From: a virus
Lineage: Duplodnaviria; Heunggongvirae; Uroviricota; Caudoviricetes
DNA: 26,221 bases
Virus record (IMG/VR): IMGVR_UViG_2617270943_000001
Location: 1-26,221 of that record
Reading direction: 5' to 3' (one strand)
A program made the position numbers and the translations under genes. Shown piece by piece: positions 1-22,199 of this stretch; the stretch's first letter is position 1, and every line of letters starts with the position of its first letter. Under the pieces are notes generated by a model. That model was given only the letters and a program-made list of their open reading frames with translations, was not told where the DNA came from and made no database searches.

Positions 1-1164
1 TTACGCCTTCTTTATATCCTCCATAATTCCAGAGTGGGACATATTTGGGACATTATCACCAAAAATGTCGTCTATTTTCCTCGCATGCTCTGTCAAATGA
101 TTAGGCGCAAGGTGAGCATACCTACGAACCATTTCTATGGACTCCCATCCGCCCATTTCCTGAAGCACTGATAATGGGACGCCTGACTGAATCAGCCAGC
201 TTGCCCAGGTGTGTCTGAGGTCATGGAAACGGAAATCTTCAATTCCTGCACGACGACAAGCTGATAGCCATGATGTCTTGCTGTCGATGCGCATCTTCCT
301 GACCGCAGGCGTTGATGTTCCATCTGCTCGCTTAGCCGCCTTGGTATGTACAAACACCCATTTGTGATGCTTGCCTATTTGATCACGCAACACTTTACAG
401 GCGGTATCGTTCAGCGCCACACCAATGGCGCGGTTTGATTTGCTCTCTTCTGGATTCACCCAGGCAACTCGTCGCTGCATGTCGATTTGTTGCCATTCCA
501 GATTTATGATGTTCGACTTTCTCAGACCAGTTGCCAGCGCAAACTTGACGACAGATTTCAGTGGTTCGGGGCACTCATCAATAAGGCGTTTTGCTTCCTC
601 CTTTTCCAGCCATCTGACTCGCTTGTTTCTGACCGCTGGTATCTTGATGACAGGCGCTTTTTCCAGCCACTTCCAGTCGCGTTCTGCAGCACGGAGAATG
701 GCCTTTATCATGGCAAGATGCTTTGCCTTTGTCTGAGTTGATACTGGCTTTGGTTCATAAACAGGCGGTTCTTTACCTTTCCTGATGGCGGCCTGAACTT
801 TCTGTTTCCATATTTCTTTCGTCTTTCTGTTATGCATTCTGCTTACAGCAGAGTAAATCTTTGCCTCCGAGATATCTTTAAGCCTTATACCCTCAAAATG
901 TTCAAGCCAGAACTCAATCCGGCTTTTATCTGAATCGAGAGATTTTTTATCAGCTTTTTCCTCAAGCCATCTTAGGCAGGCCTCTTCAAAAGTGACATCA
1001 GGTAAATCCCCTAGCTTTTCTACTCGCCAGAGTTCTGCTTTTCGCTTGTCGTGCAACTCCTGAGCTTGCCGCTTGTCCTTTGTGCCAAGAGATTCCTTAA
1101 TTCGTTTCCCGCCCGGGAGCGAATACGAGGCATACCATATTTCATTTCTGCGGAAGAGTGACAT
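1..1164 (-). CDS. int: Tyrosine-type site-specific integrase, 387 aa
   Basis: Complete ORF on minus strand; C-terminal HDLRHTWAS...VRRYAHL block matches the tyrosine recombinase box II pattern (His-x-x-Arg...Tyr); sits at the prophage end next to an excisionase-like gene. Stop codon is at window position 1-3, so attL lies outside the window. Confidence 0.9.
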
Positions 1165-1391
1165 TTTCTTTCCTCTGTTATGCCATCACCCGCGCTCACC
1201 TGGACAGTATGCAGCGGAGACTGAAGCGCCGCAATGCAGGCTTGCCGTGTTGTGAGGTAAGGAGATTTTGGCTTGGTTGGATCTTTACGTGTTGCCTGTA
1301 GGCGGCCTGTTCGTATCCAGTTGGTGGCGGTTGGTCTGGATATCTTAAGAAACTGACAGGCCTCATCGAGTGTGAGGCTGTATGATTCCAT
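1020..1391 (-). CDS. xis: Excisionase-like DNA-binding protein (start at internal Met, [31 protein letters not shown])
   Basis: ATG at 1391 (minus) gives an N-terminal helix-turn-helix typical of Xis/AlpA-type proteins, immediately upstream of int. The reading frame stays open to 1020 and so overlaps the int start by 145 nt; true C-terminus not verified. Confidence 0.55.
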
Positions 1392-1641
1392 GGTTACCTC
1401 TGCTTTTTGAACGCATGTCACGTAACTTCTTAATGTGTTCTGCCGTTTCGATCTCTTCTGCTATCCGATCTGCATCAGCTTTATTCACAGGTTCAAAGTC
1501 ATGATTAAAGCGGAACATGCTGGCGATACATGTTCTGCCTTTTCGGATGTAGTGAACTTTGTTGTGGGTAGAACGCAGGATTTTGCAGGGAGTGCCGTGG
1601 TGGTCGACGTACCAGGTGTTAGGAAAAATGATTCTGAACAT
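1363..1641 (-). CDS. Hypothetical small prophage protein, 92 aa
   Basis: ORF in the leftward early operon, co-oriented with neighbours. Product not recognised with certainty. Confidence 0.45.
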   Translation of the reverse strand: MFRIIFPNTWYVDHHGTPCKILRSTHNKVHYIRKGRTCIASMFRFNHDFEPVNKADADRIAEEIETAEHIKKLRDMRSKSRGNHGIIQPHTR

Positions 1642-1688
1642 TTTTACACCTCAGTTGGACGATGTTGAAATTTGCTGCTTTGAGGCCA

Positions 1689-1907
1689 TCACAGTCCCCA
1701 TTGTTTGTTCTTAAGTTCGATCTCCTCCTGGCAACTTGCACAAGTCCGACAACCCTGAACAGCCAGGCGTCTTCGCTCATCTATCGGATCGCCACACTCA
1801 CAACAATGAGTTGCGGATACAGTCTGGTAGTTCAGACGACGCATTTTTATTGCTGTATTGCGCTGTAATTCTTCGATTTCTGATGCCGAATCAATGATGT
1901 CTGCCAT
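1689..1907 (-). CDS. TraR/DksA-family C4-type zinc-finger protein, 72 aa
   Basis: Four-Cys motif CxxC...CxxC (HCCECGDPID...GCRTCASCQ) in a 72-aa phage early protein, typical of TraR/YbiI-like zinc-finger proteins of prophages and plasmids. Confidence 0.7.
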   Translation of the reverse strand: MADIIDSASEIEELQRNTAIKMRRLNYQTVSATHCCECGDPIDERRRLAVQGCRTCASCQEEIELKNKQWGL

Positions 1908-2005
1908 CTTCCATTAATCCCTGAATTGTTGGTTAATACGCTTGAGGATGAATGCGAACAATAAAAAAGGAGCCTGTAGCTCCCTGATGATTTTGCTTTT
2001 CATGT

Positions 2006-2287
2006 TCACCGTTCCTTAAAGACGCCGTTTAACATGCCGATCGCCAGGCTTAAATGAGTCGGTGTGAATCCCATCAGCGTTACCGTTTCGCGGTGCTTCT
2101 TCAGTACGCTACGGCAAATGTCATCGACGTTTTTATCCGGAAACTGCTGTCTGGCTTTTTTGATTTCAGAATTAGCCTGACGGGCAATGCTGCGAAGGGC
2201 GTTTTCCTGCTGAGGTGTCATTGAACAAGTCCCATGTCGGCAAGCATAAGCACACAGAATATGAAGCCCGCTGCCAGAAAAATGCAT
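2006..2287 (-). CDS. Hypothetical small prophage protein (start uncertain; candidate ATGs at 2317, 2287, 2221)
   Basis: ORF in the leftward operon between the zinc-finger gene and exo. No recognisable motif. Confidence 0.35.
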   Translation of the reverse strand: MHFSGSGLHILCAYACRHGTCSMTPQQENALRSIARQANSEIKKARQQFPDKNVDDICRSVLKKHRETVTLMGFTPTHLSLAIGMLNGVFKER

Positions 2288-2297
2288 TCCGTGGTTG

Positions 2298-2489
2298 TCA
2301 TACCTGGTCTCTCTCATCTGCTTCTGCTTTCGCCACCATCATTTCCAGCTTTTGTGAAAGGGATGCGGCTAACGTATGAAATTCTTCGTCTGTTTCTACT
2401 GGTATTGGCACAAACCTGACTCCAATTTGAGCGAGGCTATGTGCCATCTCGATACTCGTTCTTAACTCAACGGGAGATGCTTTGTGCAT
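2298..2489 (-). CDS. Hypothetical small acidic prophage protein, 63 aa
   Basis: Co-oriented ORF tightly packed in the leftward early operon. Function unknown. Confidence 0.4.
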   Translation of the reverse strand: MHKASPVELRTSIEMAHSLAQIGVRFVPIPVETDEEFHTLAASLSQKLEMMVAKAEADERDQV

Positions 2490-2650
2490 ACAGCTCCCCG
2501 TTTATTATTTATCTCCTCAGCCAGCCGCTGTGCTTTCAGGGGATTTCGGATAACAGAAAGGCCGGGAAATACCCAGCCTCGCTTCGTAACGGAGTAGACG
2601 AAAGTGATCGTGCCTACGCGGATATTATCGTGAGGATGTTTCATCGCCAT
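2462..2650 (-). CDS. Hypothetical small prophage protein, 62 aa
   Basis: Start overlaps the exo stop by about 10 nt, a typical phage operon coupling arrangement. Function unknown. Confidence 0.4.
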
Positions 2651-3321
2651 TGCTCCCCAAATACAAAACCAATTTCAGCCAGTGCCTCGTCCATTTTTTC
2701 GATGAACTCCGGCACCATCTCGTCAAAACTCGCTATATACTTTTCATTCCGCTCAATCACGACATAATGCAGGCCTTCACGCTTCATACGCGGGTCATAG
2801 TTGGCAAAGTACCAGGCATCTTTTCGCGTCACCCACATGCTGTACTGCACCTGGGCCATGTAAGCCGATTTTATTGCCTCGAAACCACCGAGCCGGAATT
2901 TCATGAAATCCCGGGAGGTAAACGGGCATTTCAGTTCAAGGCCGTTGCCGTCACTGCATAAACCATCGGGAGAGCAGGCGGTGCGCATACTTTCGTCGCG
3001 ATAGATGATCGGGGATTCAGTAACATTCACGCCGGAAGTAAACTCAAACAGGGCTCTGGCGTCATTCTCGTACTGTTTTCCCCAGGCCAGCGCCTTAGCG
3101 TTAACTTCCGGAGCCACACCGGTGCAAATCTCAGCCAGCAGGGTGTGAAAGTAGGACATTTTCATGTCAGGCCACTTTTTTCCGGAGCGGGGTTTTGCTA
3201 TCACATTGTGAACTTCTGAAGCCGTGATGACGCCGAGTCGTAATTTGTTCCACGCATCATCTCCCTGTTCGACAGCTCTCACGTCGATCCCGGTACGCTG
3301 CAGGATAATGTCCGGTGTCAT
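2641..3321 (-). CDS. exo: Lambda-type exonuclease (Red alpha), 226 aa
   Basis: Translation [24 protein letters not shown]...[10 protein letters not shown] is near-identical over its full length to phage lambda Exo as I recall it; located directly downstream of bet. Confidence 0.95.
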
Positions 3322-4103
3322 GCTGCCACCTTCTGCTCAGTGGCTTTCTGTTTCAGGAATCCAAGAGCTTTCACTGCTTCGGCCTGTGTCAGTTCTGACG
3401 ATGCGCGAATGTCGCGGCGAAATATCTGGGAACAGAGCGGCAATAAGTCGTCATCCCATGTTTTATCCAGGGCGATCAGCAGAGTGTTAATCTCCTGCAT
3501 GGTTTCATCGTTAACCGGAGTGATGTCGCGTTCCGGCTGACGTTCTGCAGTGTATGCGGTATTTTCGACAATGCGCTCGGCTTCATCCTTGTCATAGATA
3601 CCAGCAAATCCGAAGGCGAGACGGGCACACTGAATCATGGCTTTATGCCGTAACATCCGTTTGGGATGCGACTGCCACGGCCCCGTGATTTCTCTGCCTT
3701 CGCGGGTTTTGAATGGTTCGCGGCGGCATTCATCCATCCACTCGGTAACGCAGATCGGATGATTACGGTCCTTGCGGTAAATCCGGCATGTACATGATTC
3801 ATTGTCCTGCTCAAAGTCCATGCCATCAAACTGCTGGTTTTCATTGATGATACGGGACCAGCCATCAACGCCCACCACCGGAACGATGCCGTTCTGCTTG
3901 TCAGGGAAGGCGTAAATTTCTTTCGTCCACGGATTAAGGCCGTACTGGTTGGCGACGATCAACAATGCGATGAACTGCGCATCGCTGGCATCACCTTTAA
4001 ATGCCGTCTGGCGAAGAGTGGTGATCAGTTCCTGTGGGTCGACAGAATCCATGCCGACACGTTCAGCCAGCTTCCCAGCCAGCGTTGCGAGTGCTGTACT
4101 CAT
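3318..4103 (-). CDS. bet: Single-strand annealing protein Bet (Red beta), 261 aa
   Basis: Translation [48 protein letters not shown]... matches lambda Bet; start/stop overlap with exo as in lambda. Confidence 0.95.
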
Positions 4104-4108
4104 CCGTT

Positions 4109-4405
4109 TTATACCTCTGAATCAATATCAACCTGGTGGTGAGCAATGGTTTCAACCATGTACCGGATGTGTTCTGCCATGCGCTCCTGAAACTCAACAT
4201 CGTCATCAAACGCACGGGTAATGGCTTTTTTGCTGGCCCCGTGGCGTTGCAAATGATCGATGCATAGCGATTCAAACAGGTGCTGGGGCAGGCTTTTTTC
4301 CATGTCGTCTGCCAGTTCTGCCTCTTTCTCTTCACGGGCGAGCTGCTGGTAGTGACGCGCCCAGCTCTGAGCCTCAAGACGATCCTGAATGTAATAAGCG
4401 TTCAT
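4109..4405 (-). CDS. gam: Gam, RecBCD inhibitor (short GamS-type form, 98 aa)
   Basis: Translation [37 protein letters not shown]...[10 protein letters not shown] matches lambda Gam from its internal start; AGGAG Shine-Dalgarno upstream of the ATG at 4405. Confidence 0.9.
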
Positions 4406-4481
4406 GGCTGAACTCCTGAAAATGGCTGTGAAAATATCGCCCGCGAAATGCCAGGCTGATTAGGAAAACAGGAAAGGGGGG

Positions 4482-4772
4482 TTAGTGATTCAGGCCGTTA
4501 CCGCGTCCGTCGAGAAAAACTTCCACGAGCAAATCACTGGTATAAGTGCGCTCGATGCCGCGATGCAGATAAAGCCGTCCGCGTAAATTAGCTGATGCAG
4601 TCCAGGTACCATCTTTGTGTTTGACCAGCATTCCTGGCATGACCGCGCCGCGATTAACGGTCTGTGTTCCGTAATGTTGATGAACCATAAAAACTCCTGC
4701 CCGTAAGCTGGGCTGCTGAACATATAGAGACTTCTGCGCATATTCAGGCGGTGGATGGCCGCCGGTTGTCAT
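4482..4772 (-). CDS. Hypothetical protein, first gene downstream of putative pL (96 aa from ATG at 4772; alternative TTG start at 4892 would add an Arg-rich N-terminus)
   Basis: ORF 4482..4892 on minus strand; the internal ATG at 4772 has a GAGG Shine-Dalgarno, whereas the TTG at 4892 has none. Not recognised as any lambda early protein. Confidence 0.35.
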   Translation of the reverse strand: MTTGGHPPPEYAQKSLYVQQPSLRAGVFMVHQHYGTQTVNRGAVMPGMLVKHKDGTWTASANLRGRLYLHRGIERTYTSDLLVEVFLDGRGNGLNH

Positions 4773-4959
4773 AACTAAGCCGCCTCGTTGAAGCGACTGA
4801 GGTATGAAATGTTGAGTTAATTTCAGCTGGTCACACCGACGTTCACGCGTCCGTTTCACCCCTCGCACTCCCCGAAGCCTGCTGAAATTCAAACTGCGGA
4901 TCTAAGCGGTCATCGCAACGGTGAATCAGGTAGTTGCCGTATCGTTGTGTTGTTGCGAT

Positions 4960-5040
4960 GAACTTATTTAAAACTATAGTTGTTTTATCGTCAACAACAA
5001 AAGTTGTTTTATTGGTTGTTTTAGATATAACTGGTTGTAT
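4960..5040 (-). promoter_or_regulatory. Putative pL promoter and OL operators
   Basis: Minus strand reads TTGTTGTTGACGATAAAACAACTATAGTTTTAAAT, almost identical to the pR module TGGTTGTTGACTAAAAACAACCATAGTTTTAATCT. -35 TTGACG at 4994..4989; several GTTGTT/AACAAC half-sites arranged as dyads. Confidence 0.55.
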
Positions 5041-5120
5041 TTAGGATGGATTTATTTTGTGACTTGAATCGCATAGCGATAACTGAAGCGAGGTTATGGT
5101 GGTTTTTTTAACGGTGTGTG

Positions 5121-5152
5121 TGATGAGGGGAGGGCAAAAGAAAACCCGGCAC
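5121..5152 (-). terminator. Putative rho-independent terminator downstream of cI
   Basis: Minus strand has a CCCGG-8 nt-CCGGG hairpin followed by TTTTCTTTT; lies between the cI stop and the pL region. Confidence 0.4.
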
Positions 5153-5283
5153 GGTGACCGGGATTCTTACGCCGTTAGGTAAAGATATTATTGCGGTGGC
5201 TTAATATTACTACCTAGAGCAAAGATAGGAATTAGTTCTTTACTGAATGAGCACAATGCCCAGTTGATAATTTTTAATTGGTA

Positions 5284-5973
5284 CTACCCATGCTTCCTAT
5301 ATGTCTGCGGCATGCTCCCAATAACCTTACCGAAGATGAACACCCGGTTCATCTCGTCTTTCTCGATCGGGTCCCACGGTGAGTAGCTTTTGTTATCAGA
5401 GATGACCAGCAGCTTATCCTTCATCATTTGCAGGCGCTTTACATGGGCTGTGTCGTCGTACAGAAACGCATAGATACCATCACCGTCGAAAGATTTAACT
5501 GTGATATCAACGAACAGCAGATCACCTGGTTCGATCGTTCCTGACATGCTGTCACCACGCACGTTAATGATGCGGATATTTTCCGCCTTCCTACCATCGA
5601 ACATGTGACGAGCATCGTCAAACGAGTACTCAACCGAGCGTAGAACTTCTACAAACTCACGGTTGATGACTCCCGGCCCAGCACTGACTTCTATATCAAG
5701 AACGTCAATCTTGAAGTATTTGGAATGGCTGACAGTTGATTGTATTGGTTGCACTGTACTGTCTGACATATTTCCAACGCCAGAAGATAACCATTCTGCG
5801 CGCACACCCAAAGCGTTCGCGATCTCCACGATTTTAGTTGTTTGATTAGCTTTCCCTGTTTCGATTTTCTGAATAGCAGCCTGGCTAACCCCGACCAAAT
5901 CCCCAAGCGCCTTTTGTGTAAGGCCTCGCGCTAATCTGGCTTCTTTAAGTCTTTCTGAGAGTGTTGTTTTCAT
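5284..5973 (-). CDS. cI: cI-type repressor: N-terminal HTH plus C-terminal S24 (LexA-like) autopeptidase, 230 aa
   Basis: HTH LTQKALGDLVGVSQAAIQKIE; Ala-Gly cleavage site (SAGPG); catalytic Ser (GDSM) and Lys (VKRL). Divergent from the cro-like gene across an operator-rich spacer. ATG at 5973 has no Shine-Dalgarno, consistent with a leaderless PRM transcript as in lambda. Confidence 0.85.
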   Translation of the reverse strand: MKTTLSERLKEARLARGLTQKALGDLVGVSQAAIQKIETGKANQTTKIVEIANALGVRAEWLSSGVGNMSDSTVQPIQSTVSHSKYFKIDVLDIEVSAGPGVINREFVEVLRSVEYSFDDARHMFDGRKAENIRIINVRGDSMSGTIEPGDLLFVDITVKSFDGDGIYAFLYDDTAHVKRLQMMKDKLLVISDNKSYSPWDPIEKDEMNRVFIFGKVIGSMPQTYRKHG

Positions 5974-5979
5974 AGTCCA

Positions 5980-6077
5980 AATGTACAACCAAGGTTTTAT
6001 TCCATCAAACGAAAATGGTTGTTGACTAAAAACAACCATAGTTTTAATCTTGATTCAAATTAACCACGGAGGTTGTT
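5980..6077. promoter_or_regulatory. OR operators with divergent pR and pRM
   Basis: Dyad TGGTTGTT-7 bp-AACAACCA (6017..6039) overlaps a -35 TTGACT (6022..6027), 17-bp spacer and -10 TAATCT (6045..6050). Further ACAACCA/GGTTGTT half-sites at about 5986 and 6071. GGAGG Shine-Dalgarno before the cro ATG. Confidence 0.6.
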
Positions 6078-8930: not shown

Positions 8931-8997
8931 TGAAACAGGTGAGTTGAGTTCAAACTGTAGTACAATTCTCTCCAGTTTGAACAGGAAAGAATATTCT

Positions 8998-9330
8998 ATG
9001 AACCCTTATATTTATCTTGGTGGTGCAATACTTGCAGAGGTCATTGGTACAACCTTAATGAAGTTTTCAGAAGGTTTTACACGGTTATGGCCATCTGTTG
9101 GTACAATTATTTGTTATTGTGCATCATTCTGGTTATTAGCTCAGACGCTGGCTTATATTCCTACAGGGATTGCTTATGCTATCTGGTCAGGAGTCGGTAT
9201 TGTCCTGATTAGCTTACTGTCATGGGGACTTTTCGGCCAACGGCTGGACCTGCCAGCCATTATAGGCATGATGTTGATTTGTGCCGGTGTGTTGGTTATT
9301 AATTTATTGTCACGAAGCACACCACATTAA
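8998..9330 (+). CDS. emrE: SMR-family multidrug efflux transporter EmrE, 110 aa
   Basis: Translation MNPYIYLGGAILAEVIGTTLMKFSEGFTRLWPSVG... matches E. coli EmrE (the DLP12-borne gene) with four predicted TM helices; ATG at 8998 preceded by AGGAAAG. Confidence 0.9.
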   Translation: MNPYIYLGGAILAEVIGTTLMKFSEGFTRLWPSVGTIICYCASFWLLAQTLAYIPTGIAYAIWSGVGIVLISLLSWGLFGQRLDLPAIIGMMLICAGVLVINLLSRSTPH

Positions 9331-9584: not shown

Positions 9585-11111
9585 ATGAAAAAAGCCATAG
9601 CATATATGCGATTTTCATCACCAGGTCAGATGTCTGGCGACTCATTAAACCGACAGAGAAGACTTATTGCTGAATGGTTAAAGGTAAATAGTGATTATTA
9701 TCTTGATACCATAACATATGAAGATTTAGGATTAAGTGCATTCAAAGGAAAGCATGCACAATCAGGAGCTTTTTCGGAATTTTTAGATGCTATAGAGCAT
9801 GGTTATATATTGCCAGGAACTACATTGTTAGTTGAAAGTCTGGACAGACTTTCAAGAGAAAAAGTCGGTGAAGCGATTGAACGTCTGAAATTGATTTTGA
9901 ATCACGGTATTGATGTTATAACTCTTTGCGACAATACAGTCTATAATATTGACTCTTTGAATGAGCCATATTCATTAATAAAAGCCATACTTATAGCACA
10001 AAGGGCAAATGAAGAAAGCGAGATAAAGTCAAGTCGGGTTAAATTATCATGGAAGAAAAAACGGCAGGATGCACTGGAATCAGGTACGATTATGACGGCG
10101 TCTTGTCCGAGATGGCTCTCCTTAGATGACAAAAGAACGGCTTTTGTTCCAGACCCCGACAGGGTGAAAACTATTGAGCTAATTTTTAAACTCAGGATGG
10201 AAAGGCGCTCATTGAATGCAATAGCCAAGTATTTAAATGATCATGCTGTAAAGAATTTCTCAGGAAAAGAAAGTGCATGGGGACCTTCTGTAATTGAAAA
10301 ATTATTAGCGAATAAAGCTCTGATAGGTATATGCGTACCTTCATATCGTGCAAGAGGTAAAGGAATAAGTGAAATCGCTGGCTATTATCCCAGAGTCATA
10401 TCAGATGATTTGTTTTACGCTGTACAGGAAATTCGGTTGGCACCTTTTGGTATTAGCAATAGTAGCAAAAATCCTATGTTGATAAATCTACTTCGAACAG
10501 TTATGAAGTGCGAGGCTTGTGGTAATACCATGATTGTTCATGCGGTATCTAGAAGTTTGCATGGCTATTATGTTTGTCCGATGAGAAGACTGCATCGATG
10601 TGACAGGCCATCAATAAAGAGAGATTTGGTTGATTATAATATCATTAATGAGTTGCTTTTTAATTGTAGTAAAATCCAACCAGTTGAAAACAAGAAAGAT
10701 GCTAATGAAACTTTAGAGTTGAAAATTATTGAGCTCCAGATGAAAATTAATAATTTAATTGCTGCATTATCTGTTGCGCCTGAAGTTACCGCTATAGCAG
10801 AAAAAATCAGAGTATTAGATAAGGAATTACGAAGGGCTTCTGTATCATTAAAAACTTTGAAGAGTAAAGCGGTGAGTTCACTTGGTGATTTTCATGCTAT
10901 TGACTTAACCAGTAAAAATGGGCGAGAGCTATGTCGTACACTTGCCTATAAAACATTCGAAAAAATCATAATCAATACAGATAATAAAACCTGTGATATC
11001 TATTTTATGAATGGCATTGTTTTTAAACACTATCCTTTAATGAAAACAATATCCGCCCAGCAGGCGATAAGTACTCTCAAATATATGGTTGATGGTGAGG
11101 TTTATTTTTGA
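9585..11111 (+). CDS. ybcK: Large serine recombinase (resolvase/invertase-type N-terminal domain with recombinase and zinc-ribbon extension), 508 aa
   Basis: N-terminal AIAYMRFSSPGQ with catalytic-Ser context and LLVESLDRLSR motif; C-terminal CxxC...C cluster; AT-rich codon usage; resembles DLP12 YbcK. Confidence 0.8.
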   Translation: MKKAIAYMRFSSPGQMSGDSLNRQRRLIAEWLKVNSDYYLDTITYEDLGLSAFKGKHAQSGAFSEFLDAIEHGYILPGTTLLVESLDRLSREKVGEAIERLKLILNHGIDVITLCDNTVYNIDSLNEPYSLIKAILIAQRANEESEIKSSRVKLSWKKKRQDALESGTIMTASCPRWLSLDDKRTAFVPDPDRVKTIELIFKLRMERRSLNAIAKYLNDHAVKNFSGKESAWGPSVIEKLLANKALIGICVPSYRARGKGISEIAGYYPRVISDDLFYAVQEIRLAPFGISNSSKNPMLINLLRTVMKCEACGNTMIVHAVSRSLHGYYVCPMRRLHRCDRPSIKRDLVDYNIINELLFNCSKIQPVENKKDANETLELKIIELQMKINNLIAALSVAPEVTAIAEKIRVLDKELRRASVSLKTLKSKAVSSLGDFHAIDLTSKNGRELCRTLAYKTFEKIIINTDNKTCDIYFMNGIVFKHYPLMKTISAQQAISTLKYMVDGEVYF

Positions 11112-11255
11112 GTAATAATCACTTTTTCAACCGTGCTATAGTAAGAAAGTTAGGTAAGTACATTTAGACTGGCCCCCTGAATCTCCAGACAACCAATATC
11201 ACTTAAATAAGTGATAGTCTTAATACTAGTTTTTAGACTAGTCATTGGAGAACAG

Positions 11256-11621
11256 ATGATTGATGTCTTAGGGCCGGAGAAACGCAGACGGCGTACCACA
11301 CAGGAAAAGATCGCAATTGTTCAGCAGAGCTTTGAACCGGGGATGACGGTCTCCCTCGTTGCCCGGCAACATGGTGTAGCAGCCAGCCAGTTATTTCTCT
11401 GGCGTAAGCAATACCAGGAAGGAAGTCTTACTGCTGTCGCCGCCGGAGAACAGGTTGTTCCTGCCTCTGAACTTGCTGCCGCCATGAAGCAGATTAAAGA
11501 ACTCCAGCGCCTGCTCGGCAAGAAAACGATGGAAAATGAACTCCTCAAAGAAGCCGTTGAATATGGACGGGCAAAAAAGTGGATAGCGCACGCGCCCTTA
11601 TTGCCCGGGGATGGGGAGTAA
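11256..11621 (+). CDS. insC: IS2 transposase OrfA (InsC)
   Basis: Translation [47 protein letters not shown]... with HTH; ends just after the AAAAAAG slippery heptamer at 11573..11579. Confidence 0.9.
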
Positions 11622-12484
11622 GCTTAGTCAGCCGTTGTCTCCGGGTGTCGCGTGCGCAGTTGCACGTCATTCTCAGACGAACCGATGACTGGATGGATGG
11701 CCGCCGCAGTCGTCACACTGATGATACGGATGTGCTTCTCCGTATACACCATGTTATCGGAGAGCTGCCCACGTATGGTTATCGTCGGGTATGGGCGCTG
11801 CTTCGCAGACAGGCAGAACTTGATGGTATGCCTGCGATCAATGCCAAACGTGTTTACCGGATCATGCGCCAGAATGCGCTGTTGCTTGAGCGAAAACCTG
11901 CTGTACCGCCATCGAAACGGGCACATACAGGCAGAGTGGCCGTGAAAGAAAGCAATCAGCGATGGTGCTCTGACGGGTTCGAGTTCTGCTGTGATAACGG
12001 AGAGAGACTGCGTGTCACGTTCGCGCTGGACTGCTGTGATCGTGAGGCACTGCACTGGGCGGTCACTACCGGCGGCTTCAACAGTGAAACAGTACAGGAC
12101 GTCATGCTGGGAGCGGTGGAACGCCGCTTCGGCAACGATCTTCCGTCGTCTCCAGTGGAGTGGCTGACGGATAATGGTTCATGCTACCGGGCTAATGAAA
12201 CACGCCAGTTCGCCCGGATGTTGGGACTTGAACCGAAGAACACGGCGGTGCGGAGTCCGGAGAGTAACGGAATAGCAGAGAGCTTCGTGAAAACGATAAA
12301 GCGTGACTACATCAGTATCATGCCCAAACCAGACGGGTTAACGGCAGCAAAGAACCTTGCAGAGGCGTTCGAGCATTATAACGAATGGCATCCGCATAGT
12401 GCGCTGGGTTATCGCTCGCCACGGGAATATCTGCGGCAGCGGGCTTGTAATGGGTTAAGTGATAACAGATGTCTGGAAATATAG
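11579..12484 (+). CDS. insD: IS2 transposase OrfB (InsD; DDE catalytic domain, expressed by -1 frameshift fusion to OrfA)
   Basis: The ORF is in the -1 frame relative to insC and overlaps it by 43 nt; sequence matches IS2 InsD as recalled, with the DDE catalytic core expected for an IS3-family OrfB. Confidence 0.9.
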
Positions 12485-15813: not shown

Positions 15814-15965
15814 AAAAATAAAGGGTAATATATAACAGAAGGTTTGTATAGTTAGAAGCAAGGTTGTGCTTCTAAAGGAAGTGGCTTGAGGGAGCCACTT
15901 ATATGTTGGGGAGGCAAAGCCTCCCACAACATATCTTTTAGTAATCAAATTAGAACTGGTAAACC
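15814..15965 (-). ncRNA. Candidate small RNA between the porin 3' end and the minus-strand terminator (IpeX-like position)
   Basis: Three perfect 8-bp hairpins (15853..15874, 15879..15900, 15901..15934) plus the terminator hairpin in under 180 nt, co-directional with the porin gene. The DLP12 sRNA IpeX is reported at the nmpC 3' end; sequence identity not verified. Confidence 0.25.
15901..15940 (+). terminator. Rho-independent terminator on plus strand (candidate tR' of the late operon)
   Basis: Extended hairpin ATATGTTG-GGGAGGC-AAA-GCCTCCC-ACAACATAT followed by CTTTT, about 140 nt downstream of Q. Confidence 0.5.
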
Positions 15966-17032
15966 ATACCTACAGCAACGATATCATCGGTAGCAACGCC
16001 AGATGCTTTCGTGAAATCGCTCTTATCAATCAGGTTGATTTTGTAGTCAACAAAAGTGGACATATTTTTGTTGAAGTAATAGGTTGCACCTACATCAACA
16101 TATTCAACCAGGTCCTGATCACCCCAAACACCCAAGTCTTTTCCTTTAGAATGCAGGTAAGCAACGGATGGACGCAGGCCGAAGTCGAACTGATATTGTG
16201 CAACAGCTTCGAAGTTTTGTGCTTTGTTGGCAATATGGTTATTACCAAAAACAGTCATGTTCTGGGTTTCAGAATAGGTGGTGGCCAGATAGATGTTGTT
16301 CGCATCATATTTCAGACCAGCTGCCCATACTTCAGCATTTTGACCAGAAGCATTCAGACCGTTGTTACCGTAGATAACCTGATTATTAGTGCGATCAGAT
16401 TTAGCATAGGTTGCACCCACGCCGAATCCTTCATACTCATAAGTAGTTGAGAAACCGAAACCATCGCCATTAGCTTCAGTTACTTCATTTCGGTCATTTT
16501 TGCCCTGATACTGAGCTGCAAAGTTCAGGCCATCAACCAGACCAAAGAAGTCGTTGTTACGATAAGTTGCAACACCTGTGGTGCGACCAGTCATGAATAC
16601 ATCTGTTTGGGTCCAGGTATCGCCACCGAATTCTGGCAGAACGTCAGTCCACGCACCGATGTCGTATGCTACACCGTAGTTACGGCCGTAATCGATTGAG
16701 CCGTAGTCACCGAATTTCAGGCCTGCAAATGCAAGACGGGTTTTGTCTTTGGAGGAACCTTGAGATTCAGCGCGGTTGCCTTTGAATTCATATTCCCACT
16801 GACCGAAACCAGTCAGTTGATCGTTGATTTGGGTTTCACCTTTGAAGCCAAGACGGGCATAAGTAGTATCACCATCATCTGCATCATTAGAGGAGAAGTA
16901 GTGCTTAGCATTAACTTTCCCGTACAGATCCAGCTTGTTACTGTCTTTATTATAAATTTCAGCTGCCTGAGCAGACATCGCCATCAGTACTGATGCAGCT
17001 ACAGCAGAAATTGCCACTGTTAATTTTTTCAT
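15950..17032 (-). CDS. nmpC: General porin of the OmpC/OmpF/PhoE family (NmpC/Lc-type phage-encoded porin), 360 aa
   Basis: Signal peptide [29 protein letters not shown], porin motifs and C-terminal VGMVYQF. Encoded antisense to the late operon between Q and the lysis genes, as in DLP12 and PA-2. Confidence 0.9.
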
Positions 17033-20377: not shown

Positions 20378-20923
20378 ATGGAAGTCAACAAAAAGCAGCT
20401 GGCTGACATTTTCGGTGCGAGTATCCGTACCATTCAGAACTGGCAGGAACAGGGAATGCCCGTTCTGCGAGGCGGTGGCAAGGGTAATGAGGTGCTTTAT
20501 GACTCTGCCGCCGTCATAAAATGGTATGCCAAAAGGGATGCTGAAATTGAGAACGAAAAGCTGCGCCGGGAGGTTGAAGAACTGCGGCAGGCCAGCGAGG
20601 CAGATCTCCAGCCAGGGACTATTGAGTACGAACGCCATCGACTTACGCGTGCGCAGGCCGACGCACAGGAACTGAAGAATGCCAGAGACTCCGCTGAAGT
20701 GGTGGAAACCGCATTCTGTACTTTCGTGCTGTCGCGGATCGCAGGTGAAATTGCCAGTATTCTCGACGGGATCCCCCTGTCGGTGCAGCGGCGTTTTCCG
20801 GAACTGGAAAACCGACATGTTGATTTCCTGAAACGGGATATCATCAAAGCCATGAACAAAGCAGCCGCGCTGGATGAACTGATACCGGGGTTGCTGAGTG
20901 AATATATCGAACAGTCAGGTTAA
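20378..20923 (+). CDS. nu1: Terminase small subunit Nu1, 181 aa
   Basis: Translation MEVNKKQLADIFGASIRTIQNWQEQGMPVLRGGGKGNEVLYDSAAVIKWYA... is near-identical to lambda Nu1 (NohD-type). Confidence 0.95.
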   Translation: MEVNKKQLADIFGASIRTIQNWQEQGMPVLRGGGKGNEVLYDSAAVIKWYAKRDAEIENEKLRREVEELRQASEADLQPGTIEYERHRLTRAQADAQELKNARDSAEVVETAFCTFVLSRIAGEIASILDGIPLSVQRRFPELENRHVDFLKRDIIKAMNKAAALDELIPGLLSEYIEQSG

Positions 20924-22199
20924 CAGGCTGCGGCATTTTGTCCGCGCCGGGCTTCGCTCACTGTTCAGGCCGGAGCCACAGACCGCCGTTGAATGGGCGG
21001 ATGCTAATTACTATCTCCCGAAAGAATCCGCATACCAGGAAGGGCGCTGGGAAACACTGCCCTTTCAGCGGGCCATCATGAATGCGATGGGCAGCGACTA
21101 CATCCGTGAGGTGAATGTGGTGAAGTCTGCCCGTGTCGGTTATCTGGATTTTTTCAAAGGCGAGATAGGGAAAACCCATCTGGCTCAGGAGCTGTGGACG
21201 CAGATTGATAACGGTCAGCTTGCGCCTGACCTGACTGAAATCAGGACGTCCATAACGGATGTCAGCAATGAAATAACGCAGACCGTCAATAAGAAACTGG
21301 AAGACCAGAGTGCAGCGATCCAGCAGATACAGAAGGTTCAGGTTGATACAAATAATAACCTGAACAGCATGTGGGCAGTGAAGCTGCAGCAGATGCAGGA
21401 CGGACGCCTTTATATTGCGGGTATCGGTGCCGGTATTGAGAACACCCCTGACGGCATGCAGAGTCAGGTGCTGCTGGCAGCAGACAGGATTGCGATGATT
21501 AATCCTGCGAATGGCAACACAAAGCCGATGTTTGTTGGTCAGGGCGATCAGATATTCATGAATGAAGTGTTCCTGAAACGCCTGACGGCCCCCACCATTA
21601 CCAGCGGCGGTAATCCTCCGGCATTTTCCCTGACATCAGACGGGAGACTGACGGCGAAAAATGCGGATATCAGTGGCAGTGTGAATGCGAACTCAGGAAC
21701 GCTCAACAATGTCACGATTAACCAGAACTGTACGATTAAGGGCATGCTGGAGGCGACCCAGGTCAGAGGAGATTTCGTTAAAGCTGTATCAAAAGCCTTC
21801 CCGAAAAAAGTCGGTACATGGGGTAACACGGAAACACCAAACGGTACGGTTACAGTCACCATCAGCGATGATCATAACTTTGACCGCCAGATTATTATTC
21901 CGCCCATTATTTTTAACGGTATAGCGTATGACGATCCGGGGAGCGGAAATAACCCAGGAGGCACGCGATACACGGGTTATGGTTTTGAAGTTCGCAAAAA
22001 CGGCGTATTAATCGCATCCAGAGAAACTAAAGGGGCCATTCCCGGTAGTTACAGTGCAGTTATTGATATGCCCAGTGGCAGGGGAAGCGTCACTCTGGAG
22101 TTTAAGATTTTCCAGAAAGGCAATCAGGGGGCAGGCAATATCACCGACTGTACGGTGATTGTGACCAAAAAAGCCGCTTCCGGCATCAGTATTCGTTGA
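20898..22199 (+). pseudogene. Chimeric in-frame ORF: terminase large subunit A N-terminus (about 82 aa) fused to the C-terminal about 350 aa of tail-tip host-specificity protein J
   Basis: Residues 1-82 (MNISNSQVNRLRHFVRAGLRSLFRPEPQTAVEWADANYYLPKESAYQEGRWETLPFQRAIMNAMGSDYIREVNVVKSARVGY) match lambda A; the remainder (...WAVKLQQMQDGRLYIAGIGAGIENT...SGGNPPAFSLT...VNANSGTLNNVTI...) matches the lambda J C-terminal region; junction near 21144. Start overlaps nu1 by 26 nt as in lambda. Confidence 0.75.

Follow-up and report, generated by a model that had tools for sequence, protein, structure and literature searches.

The five small genes that lie between xis and exo, at positions 1363-2650 of the window (the whole analysed stretch of 26,221 nt, IMG/VR record IMGVR_UViG_2617270943_000001), most probably constitute the exo-xis region of a lambda-like prophage, including a role of Orf73 at host RNA polymerase (RNAP) and a set of small modulators; the probability of this reading is estimated at about 0.88. 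The cluster is, with similarly high confidence, the promoter-distal part of the early-left operon of a lambdoid E. coli prophage of the DLP12/argU type, and its five ORFs are real, conserved genes under purifying selection. The exo-xis block of lambda-like E. coli prophages is already known and well studied. In lambda and the Shiga-toxin phages it already has a name and a map, deletions have been made and part of the structures solved, and a mechanism has been published for its zinc-finger protein; the block therefore carries little weight as a discovery. The practical value lies in the correct names and boundaries, such as the starts that give orf61 71 aa and orf60a 60 aa, for genes that are labelled 'hypothetical' in databases. 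The one truly uncharacterised component is the DUF4222 gene, for which the recurrent TraR-like neighbour could guide a small experiment.

Gene content and boundaries

The minus strand of 1363-2650 is tiled by exactly five ORFs, and the ORF listing together with the flanking xis and exo genes confirms the preliminary description, which had reported five small early-left ORFs at this place. The features of the region are as follows.

1020..1391, minus strand: xis, excisionase, 123 aa, downstream boundary of the cluster
1363..1641, minus strand: DUF4222 gene, 92 aa, last gene ahead of xis
1689..1907, minus strand: orf73, 72 aa, TraR-family C4 zinc-finger protein, allele of lambda Orf73
1914..2009, minus strand: candidate small ORF, 31 aa, GTG start, in the orf61-orf73 gap
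1967..1985, minus strand: hairpin with T-run, predicted terminator t2, between orf61 and orf73
2006..2221, minus strand: orf61, 71-aa core (mechanically listed ORF 2006..2317, 103 aa)
2298..2489, minus strand: orf63, 63 aa, DUF1382
2462..2644, minus strand: orf60a, 60 aa, DUF1317 (mechanically listed ORF 2462..2650, 62 aa)
2558..2580, minus strand: hairpin, predicted terminator t1, inside orf60a
2641..3321, minus strand: exo, lambda exonuclease, upstream boundary of the cluster

Four of the five ORFs score above the Pfam gathering threshold (DUF4222, 69 bits; zf-dskA_traR, 37; DUF1382, 108; DUF1317, 134), and all five match PHROG families, each at E<=4e-26. The four ORFs other than the zinc-finger gene, previously left as unrecognised, are all recognised, three of them as lambda orf60a, orf63 and orf61 and the fourth as a DUF4222 gene of the RgdR family. 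When conservation was checked, all five ORFs proved to be conserved, with dN/dS values well below 1 (0.05-0.40 against relatives), that is, with synonymous change in excess. Internal stops are absent from four of the genes (6-19 alleles checked per gene), and homologues of the cluster genes remain recognisable in other genera at 37-65% identity. The lambda counterparts are translated, as reported from ribosome profiling (PMC8614690, PMC9239242).

Prophage context and mosaic structure

The cluster genes lie on the same strand and are overlapping or closely spaced. On the downstream side, Xis matches the excisionase family phrog_2907 over the whole profile (E=4.4e-46) and Pfam HTH_17, and its score with the NCBIfam model 'excise' is 27.7 against a cut-off of 28.8; the xis gene shares 145 nt with int and 29 nt with the DUF4222 gene. 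On the upstream side, Exo shares 219 of 226 residues (97%) with lambda Exo. The complete operon order reads kil-gam-bet-exo-orf60a-orf63-orf61-orf73-DUF4222-xis-int, and the Kil homologue of the window is found outside the five-gene cluster, at 4482..4892.

From 1712 to at least 3393, DNA identity to lambda is 96%. On sequence comparison, the block is a mosaic in which lambda-type DNA extends rightward from 1712, the DUF4222 module occupies about 1404-1711, and xis-int of the DLP12 type lies to the left. The characterisation of the region as variable accessory DNA thus holds for the DUF4222 end only and does not apply to orf60a-orf63-orf61-orf73, which form a conserved block (PMC8614690). Escherichia phage ev243 is 100% identical over 1000-2800, and PhiR34_1 is, like ev243, a near-identical inducible phage. 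Matches were obtained to 332 phage records, and of 5426 complete E. coli genomes, 3440 carry cluster-like DNA. The prophage in the window, which has a terminase-tail-fibre fusion, looks defective or cryptic, and for this reason the cluster genes may rarely be expressed.

The TraR-like zinc-finger protein Orf73

The assignment of a TraR/DksA-type C4 zinc-finger protein, of a family that binds RNAP, was borne out, since the protein is 85% identical (as reported; 62 of 72 residues) to lambda Orf73, for which RNAP binding has been shown (PMC9239242). It matches PF01258 (zf-dskA_traR) at 37.3 bits (cut-off 24.9) and phrog_54, 'DksA-like zinc-finger protein', at E=3.6e-26, and with the narrower NCBIfam model TIGR02419 (TraR subfamily) it scores 53.9 bits, slightly under the cut-off of 59.7. 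The TraR chains 5w1s_M and 6n57_M of the PDB were also matched, and the protein aligns to TraR from end to end. The gene has a dN/dS of 0.16-0.18.

The residues on which the activity of such proteins depends can be traced individually. [quoted passage not shown] Additional cysteines at positions 36 and 53 are also present in lambda Orf73; the two extra cysteines may, as its authors suggest, explain the failure of lambda Orf73 to activate promoters (PMC9239242). In the phmmer alignment, R46 and R47 correspond to R48/R49 of TraR, which make the rim-helix and beta' Si3 contacts (motifs named in PMC9239242). The C-terminal 12 residues are unlike those of lambda (EEIELKNKQWGL here versus EDLELISKQRGSK in lambda), and the divergence of about the last 8 codons stems from a recombination junction; in TraR it is the C-terminal helix that contacts the beta Si1 insertion of RNAP.

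Lambda Orf73 slows growth; it binds RNAP and, with no need for ppGpp, inhibits the promoters of rRNA and ribosomal-protein genes. It is active alone in vitro, and phage yield is 3-4 times higher with it, a gain that is lost in the D3A/D6A mutant (PMC9239242). The published reports on orf73 conflict, one describing a pro-lytic (PMC9239242) and the other a pro-lysogenic effect (PMC8614690). The protein of the window is an allele of lambda Orf73, and from this close homology we infer that it acts in the secondary channel of RNAP.

The genes orf60a, orf63 and orf61

The two genes that follow exo are nearly invariant relative to lambda. Orf60a matches PF07026 (DUF1317) at E=2e-39, with 59 of the 60 profile positions covered, and shares 59 of 62 residues (95%) with its lambda counterpart, and Orf63 matches PF07131 (DUF1382) at E=3e-31 over 60 of 60 positions and is identical to lambda Orf63 in 60 of 63 residues (95%). 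The dN/dS values are 0.11-0.25 for orf60a and 0.1-0.4 for orf63. An NMR structure of Orf63 has been solved (PDB 8DSB; PMC10869804), and the protein of the window matches this entry (8dsb_A) at E=2e-33; a PDB sequence search with Orf60a gave no match. The ATG of orf60a at 2644 overlaps the exo stop codon as ATGA and has a GGGGAG box 8 nt upstream, and the most likely start of the gene is this position, giving 60 aa. The genetics of orf60a, orf63 and orf61 in lambda have been published (PMC6213356, PMC5575149).

The orf61 ORF matches phrog_303 (E=3.6e-43) and has no Pfam match above threshold. The 103-aa frame carries a TGA at codon 10 in 19 of 21 related alleles, the stops in its alleles are all located upstream of the 71-aa core, and its first 32 codons are not conserved as coding sequence. 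Divergent homologues from Klebsiella, Enterobacter and Citrobacter all start at the 'MTPE..' methionine, and 71 aa is likewise the length annotated by PGAP and in phage 21. The start is therefore placed, as the most likely one, at 2221, giving 71 aa. The gene is intact in the window, whereas an additional A in an A6 run puts the copy of reference lambda out of frame. This frameshift calls for caution in lambda genetics and may be the reason why deletion of orf61 has weaker effects in lambda than in phi24B. A homeodomain-like fold has been proposed for Orf61 (PMC8614690). The single-sequence structure model predicts three helices (pLDDT 78) and had no significant Foldseek match in the PDB, the best one being at E=1.2 and a homeodomain appearing only at E=3 with a TM score of 0.34. 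The PDB sequence search with Orf61 returned ankyrin-repeat word matches only, which were judged spurious.

The 31-aa ORF, terminators and promoters

In the gap between orf61 and orf73, the GTG start of a 31-aa ORF overlaps the orf61 stop as GTGA; lambda has an ATG start at this place and a copy that is 94% identical, and the ORF is annotated as CPT_21_39 in phage 21. Its dN/dS of 0.2-0.95 comes from very few changes. Ribosome profiling of a 31-aa peptide in the exo-xis block is cited by PMC8614690, and a literature search on the 31-aa lambda peptide 'orf2313' yielded only the review mentioning it.

Two hairpins of the block correspond to t1 and t2, the predicted terminators of lambda and phi24B (PMC4195576). 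The stem at 1967..1985 is identical to that of lambda and its sequence is t2 in Table 4 of that paper, with a fold z-score of only -1.7; the hairpin at 2558..2580 folds at -18.5 kcal/mol (z=-2.0), and its stem-loop and tail are those of t1. The conserved block is expressed from pL (PMC8614690, PMC4195576), and a predicted pL with operator repeats is located at about 4955-5012. A scan for sigma-70 promoters gave fewer sites in 900-2800 than in shuffled sequences, with none on the minus strand and one on the plus strand, and at the position of the published predicted promoter p1 the -10 box is weakened (TTTTATTGT). The CII-type pattern TTGYN6TTGY of a pI-like promoter does not occur in the region and is not enriched in the window. 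Between the predicted pL and kil no ORF of an N-type antiterminator was found that could account for read-through past the two predicted terminators. The leader from the predicted pL to kil, searched for a put-like antitermination RNA, has an unremarkable fold (z=-0.85), and Rfam gave nothing at gathering scores in the whole window or at E<=1 in 900-5400.

The DUF4222 gene

The last gene ahead of xis has a GAGGTG ribosome-binding site 5 nt ahead of its ATG and a dN/dS of 0.14-0.35. Its product matches PF13973 at 69.4 bits against a cut-off of 27 (E=1.9e-19) and phrog_285 at E=3e-38, and its residues 80-92 lie past the recombination junction near 1404-1412. RgdR (ECs1581) itself matches PF13973 (82 bits, E=2e-23) and is 24% identical to the protein of the window. 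RgdR is a cryptic-prophage regulator that activates LEE1 and represses motility, and only non-specific DNA binding has been reported for it; its residues 20-22 (RGD) are needed for activation of type III secretion by the ED1a variant (PMC3378721). In the broad DUF4222 alignment (A2) this RGD aligns with P-N-T in the window, so the motif is not conserved. The protein is best regarded as a distant relative of RgdR that, more weakly inferred from this analogy, may change host transcription in a similar way.

The AlphaFold model (pLDDT 85) predicts a small beta-barrel of five strands and, behind it, a helix at residues 54-81; the C-terminal helix is basic. Comparison of the model with the PDB and BFVD returned generic small barrels only (PWWP, KOW, SH3, DUF1653), all at E>=0.001; these matches are not significant and were rejected as homology. 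A sequence search of the PDB with the protein gave no match.

Proposed role and alternative explanations

In the exo-xis reading, Orf73 would enter the secondary channel of host RNAP with its N-terminal helix, whose tip carries DxxDxA, and, like F TraR and lambda Orf73, would switch off the promoters of rRNA and ribosomal-protein genes with no need for ppGpp. Such a shutdown may slow the growth of the host and raise phage yield. The products of orf60a, orf63 and orf61 would act as small modulators, as in lambda and phi24B, where they favour lytic over lysogenic development and faster prophage induction. For the DUF4222 protein, non-specific DNA binding as in RgdR, with altered host transcription, may be suggested more tentatively. 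An anti-restriction or defence function, which had also been considered for these genes, finds no evidence in the PADLOC models, with which five of the six scanned proteins had no match and Orf73 had one weak match below the noise level (E=0.007).

A different role of the DUF4222 gene would be that of an RgdR-like regulator of lysogenic conversion, which is expressed from the resident prophage and acts on motility, adhesion or secretion of the host and not on phage development. RgdR, a DUF4222 protein as well, is encoded in a cryptic prophage, from which it activates LEE1 and represses motility (PMC3378721); E. coli prophages very often carry the DUF4222 gene, and the window resembles a cryptic prophage yet keeps this gene intact. 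However, identity to RgdR is low, the RGD is replaced by P-N-T, and RgdR comes from another kind of element, the P4-related prophage Sp7, where it adjoins a primase gene. Moreover, the DUF4222 gene of the window is part of the early-left operon, follows orf73 at a distance of 47 nt and has no promoter-like site upstream; without a promoter of its own it should therefore be silent under cI repression. Such a role is considered unlikely.

It is quite doubtful, too, that DUF4222 and Orf73 form a two-protein module acting on RNAP or the nucleoid. Among 16 divergent DUF4222 loci (Escherichia, Klebsiella, Enterobacter, Citrobacter, Salmonella, Lelliottia, Pseudocitrobacter), an orf73-like gene is present upstream on the same strand in 14, despite differing integrase types, and in Klebsiella phage ST101-KPC2phi6.1 the two genes abut; a genome scan with a narrower DUF4222 alignment (A1) gave 11 loci. 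The barrel of the model is also of the general SH3/KOW/Tudor kind, but its Foldseek matches are not significant, the best having E=0.014, and shared ancestry can account for the synteny, since related prophages simply have both genes in the end region of one operon. Each gene also occurs alone, orf73 without DUF4222 in lambda and DUF4222 without orf73 in POCJ13-type phages, and lambda Orf73 needs no partner in vitro (PMC9239242). There is accordingly little chance that DUF4222 is a partner or second arm of Orf73 in host takeover, retargeting RNAP or the nucleoid early after induction; if true, this partnership would be the first mechanism for the large DUF4222/RgdR family. Hardly credible is the explanation that some of the five ORFs are chance frames in conserved regulatory DNA such as terminators and promoters. 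A published predicted promoter and two predicted terminators are indeed located in the block, coding conservation is absent from the first 32 codons of the long (103-aa) orf61 frame, and the 31-aa ORF is indistinguishable from conserved terminator sequence. For the five main ORFs, however, low dN/dS, stops that are absent or upstream of the orf61 core, and homologues in other genera refute this explanation; Orf63 folds and its structure is solved, and translation of the lambda counterparts is documented. The 31-aa ORF stays a candidate. The exo-xis region with the Orf73 role at RNAP therefore remains the preferred reading.

Comparison with known systems

[quoted passage not shown] As published, these four genes followed by ea22 form the conserved block (PMC8614690). 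In the window, by contrast, ea22, the fifth member, is missing along with ea8.5 and orf55, and the DUF4222 gene stands in their place; a tblastn search of the window with lambda Ea22 gave nothing better than E=3.8, and ea8.5 and orf55 had no match either. Lambda differs further in its orf61, which carries a +1 frameshift, and in its xis and int, for which the window has the DLP12/argU type; orf73 of the window ends in recombinant sequence.

F-plasmid TraR has in common with Orf73 of the window a length of about 72 aa, DxxDxA, CxxC-17-CxxC and the arginine pair, although identity is only 31%. RgdR of EHEC O157:H7 (Sp7/CP-933C) resembles the DUF4222 protein in its domain, its size (99 against 92 aa), its basic C-terminal tail and its prophage location. 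Its gene, however, adjoins a primase gene of a P4-related element, and the DUF4222 gene of the window is located between orf73 and xis in a lambdoid early operon. In coliphage 21 (OL657228), a further ORF of 110 aa follows the TraR-like gene, ahead of DUF4222, the DUF4222 protein is the 79-aa form, and xis and int are different, with an icd attachment site. Its genes nevertheless follow the same order on the same strand, exo-orf60a-orf63-orf61-small ORF-TraR-like gene-…-DUF4222-xis-int, and their proteins are 86-99% identical to those of the window.

Organization and conservation of the cluster

The cluster was correctly placed by the preliminary description: according to the ORF listing and family matches, five ORFs tile 1363-2650, with the excisionase on the left and exo on the right.

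Features of the cluster and its flanks (ORF bounds from the ORF listing)
1..1164, integrase gene, overlapped by the excisionase ORF
1020..1391, excisionase ORF, 123 aa (phrog_2907 end to end, E=4e-46; Pfam HTH_17)
1363..1641, minus, DUF4222 gene, 92 aa; dN/dS 0.14-0.35
1689..1907, minus, orf73, 72 aa; dN/dS 0.16-0.18 vs lambda and phage 21; 62/72 residues identical to lambda
1914..2009, candidate 31-aa ORF spanning t2, with a GTG start overlapping the orf61 stop
1985..1967, coding (minus) strand, hairpin and T-run (t2); fold z-score -1.7, modest
2006..2317, minus, orf61 (mechanical ORF), 103 aa; dN/dS 0.05-0.27
2298..2489, minus, orf63, 63 aa; dN/dS 0.1-0.4; 60/63 residues identical to lambda
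2462..2650, minus, orf60a (mechanical ORF), 62 aa; dN/dS 0.11-0.25; 59/62 residues identical to lambda
2580..2558, coding (minus) strand, hairpin and T-run (t1); fold z-score -2.0, modest
2641..3321, exo, right of the cluster; beyond it lie bet, gam and a Kil homologue; 219/226 Exo residues identical to lambda

The excisionase ORF shares 145 nt with int and 29 nt with the DUF4222 gene; it is without annotation in phage ev243, and a RefSeq genome keeps only a 66-nt pseudogene fragment.

All five cluster ORFs matched PHROG families (E<=4e-26), and four exceeded the Pfam gathering score (DUF4222, 69 bits; zf-dskA_traR, 37; DUF1382, 108; DUF1317, 134), with no Pfam family above threshold for the orf61 ORF. 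When the window was compared with 80 viral contigs and more distant phages and genomes, synonymous changes predominated in all five genes, and elements of Klebsiella, Enterobacter, Citrobacter and Salmonella still encode recognizable homologues (37-65% protein identity). The low dN/dS and the homologues in other genera therefore exclude a general lack of conservation, which the preliminary description had named as the finding that would count against it.

Identity with the exo–xis block of lambda

Over window positions 1000-2800, Escherichia phage ev243 has the same sequence (100% identity), and 332 phage records match. Between window position 1712 and at least 3393, identity to lambda DNA is 96% with a single gap, and the 63-aa Orf63 matched PDB chain 8dsb_A (E=2e-33); an NMR structure of lambda Orf63 has been reported (PMC10869804). 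The order orf60a-orf63-orf61-orf73 after exo is the conserved block of the exo–xis region, known in lambda and in the Shiga-toxin phages phi24B and 933W, where it is transcribed from the early-left promoter pL (PMC8614690; PMC4195576). The lambda ORFs are translated, as judged by ribosome profiling (cited in PMC8614690 and PMC9239242), and loss of orf60a, orf61 or orf63 by deletion alters the balance between lysis and lysogeny and makes prophage induction slower, phi24B being affected more than lambda (PMC6213356; PMC5575149). Orf60a, orf63 and orf61, previously listed as unrecognized together with the fifth ORF, are thus lambda block genes, and the fifth encodes a DUF4222 protein. The label of a variable region holds for the DUF4222 end only and does not fit the four conserved genes. 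The cluster is already known.

Among related viral contigs (L004-L083), orf63, and sometimes also orf61, is absent from a sizeable minority of otherwise near-identical loci, so that the conserved block is itself prone to internal deletions. The loci without orf63 still carry orf60a, orf73 and DUF4222.

Gene starts and the frameshift in lambda orf61

For orf60a, the most likely start is 2644: its ATG overlaps the exo stop there as ATGA, with GGGGAG 8 nt upstream. The 103-aa orf61 ORF has TGA as its codon 10 in 19 of 21 related alleles. Distant homologues conserve the protein only from the methionine equivalent to residue 33 onward ('MTPE..'), and the glycine codons before this methionine would serve as a ribosome-binding site; both PGAP and the curated phage 21 record give 71 aa. 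For these reasons, orf61 is most likely 2006..2221 (71 aa), starting at 2221. Reference lambda has one more A than the window in an A6 run (window 2156-2161; lambda locus ~3168-3174), which frameshifts orf61 and splits the gene, in agreement with the remark that lambda Orf61 looks truncated (PMC8614690). The annotated 61-aa lambda 'orf61' therefore consists mostly of a non-conserved leader plus ~23 residues of the true 71-aa protein. Only one full-span match among the fetched loci had a gap, presumably lambda. The frameshift may be a reason for the weaker orf61-deletion phenotypes of lambda.

The stem-loop sequences of both hairpins are those of predicted terminators t1 and t2 of lambda/phi24B (PMC4195576). 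Lambda also has the candidate 31-aa ORF, there starting with ATG, and the phage 21 annotation includes it; its few substitutions relative to relatives fit either coding or non-coding DNA. Neither Rfam families nor defence-system models were matched.

Orf73 as a TraR-family protein

The 72-aa protein is, by sequence, a TraR-family member, as had been proposed: its alignment with F-plasmid TraR chains 5w1s_M and 6n57_M is full-length, and it is 85% identical to lambda Orf73, although it falls just below the cut-off of the narrower NCBIfam TraR model (53.9 vs 59.7 bits). The N-terminal D3-x-x-D6-x-A8, the cysteines C35xxC38-17-C56xxC59, the arginine pair R46 R47 and the two additional cysteines (36, 53) that set lambda Orf73 apart are kept, and all features called functionally important are present (PMC9239242). 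For lambda Orf73, binding of the purified protein to RNA polymerase has been demonstrated, as has inhibition of rRNA and ribosomal-protein promoters, both in vitro and in vivo. Lambda Orf73 also complements a dksA-null strain, makes the host grow more slowly and increases phage yield 3-4-fold, an increase that a D3A/D6A mutant does not give (PMC9239242). Because of its identity and conserved motifs, the window protein most likely works in the same way. A recombination junction at 1712 separates off its last ~8 codons, which are unlike lambda. Among the Orf73-like proteins examined (L084-L099), Cys53 (window 1749-1751; G-C-x-x-C-x-x-C) is conserved in all seven genera and may therefore be functional rather than incidental; Cys36 is restricted to E. 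coli lambda-type alleles.

Prophage context and early-left control

Cluster-like DNA occurs in 3440 of 5426 complete E. coli genomes, 1728 of which cover at least 80% of the cluster. In E. coli KSC207, the identical cluster adjoins intD and a tRNA-Arg gene, which is the DLP12-type site.

Features outside the cluster
~4955-5012, predicted pL with two operator-like repeats (4972-5012), just downstream of the cI-type repressor gene
5284..6039, cI-type repressor gene
8944..9330, SMR/QacE-type efflux gene
9585..11111, large serine recombinase
11211..12484, insertion-sequence transposase pair
15950..17032, outer-membrane porin gene
20898-22199, 433-aa ORF joining ~82 N-terminal residues of the terminase large subunit to the C-terminal ~350 of a tail-fibre protein, followed by lom

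The first ORF after predicted pL is the Kil homologue. Since no ORF of at least 30 aa was found on the minus strand of 4775-5283, between the repressor gene and the Kil homologue, an N-type antiterminator gene is absent there. The leader had neither an unusual fold nor a hit in Rfam; Escherichia phage Turner carries an identical segment (100%), and that of PhiR34_1 is 99.7% identical. The 433-aa fusion suggests that head and tail genes were deleted and that the prophage is defective like DLP12. The segment 8944-12484 follows replication genes O and P and a Ren-like gene, and presumably resembles the emrE-ybcK part of DLP12.

The DUF4222 protein

The 92-aa protein stands where lambda has ea22, ea8.5 and orf55, of which no counterpart was found in the window. 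Its core extends to about residue 79, and the codons for residues 80-92 lie past a second mosaic junction (~1404-1412), where many relatives diverge. In the AlphaFold model (pLDDT 85), five strands form a small barrel and a long helix (54-81) follows; Foldseek searches of PDB and BFVD gave no significant match, and all hits were generic small barrels. Enterobacteriaceae homologues carry only the name 'DUF4222 domain-containing protein'. The one studied member found is RgdR (ECs1581; DUF4222 confirmed at E=2e-23) of EHEC prophage Sp7, an activator of the LEE1 promoter and a repressor of motility whose DNA binding is non-specific (PMC3378721; PMC10877973). The window protein shares 24% identity with it over 75 residues, with P-N-T aligned to its RGD motif. 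Upstream of DUF4222 and on its strand, 14 of 16 divergent loci have an Orf73-like gene; integrase type varies widely among these loci. This pairing could be functional or could reflect mere shared position at the operon end; lambda has orf73 without DUF4222, whereas POCJ13-type phages have DUF4222 without orf73.
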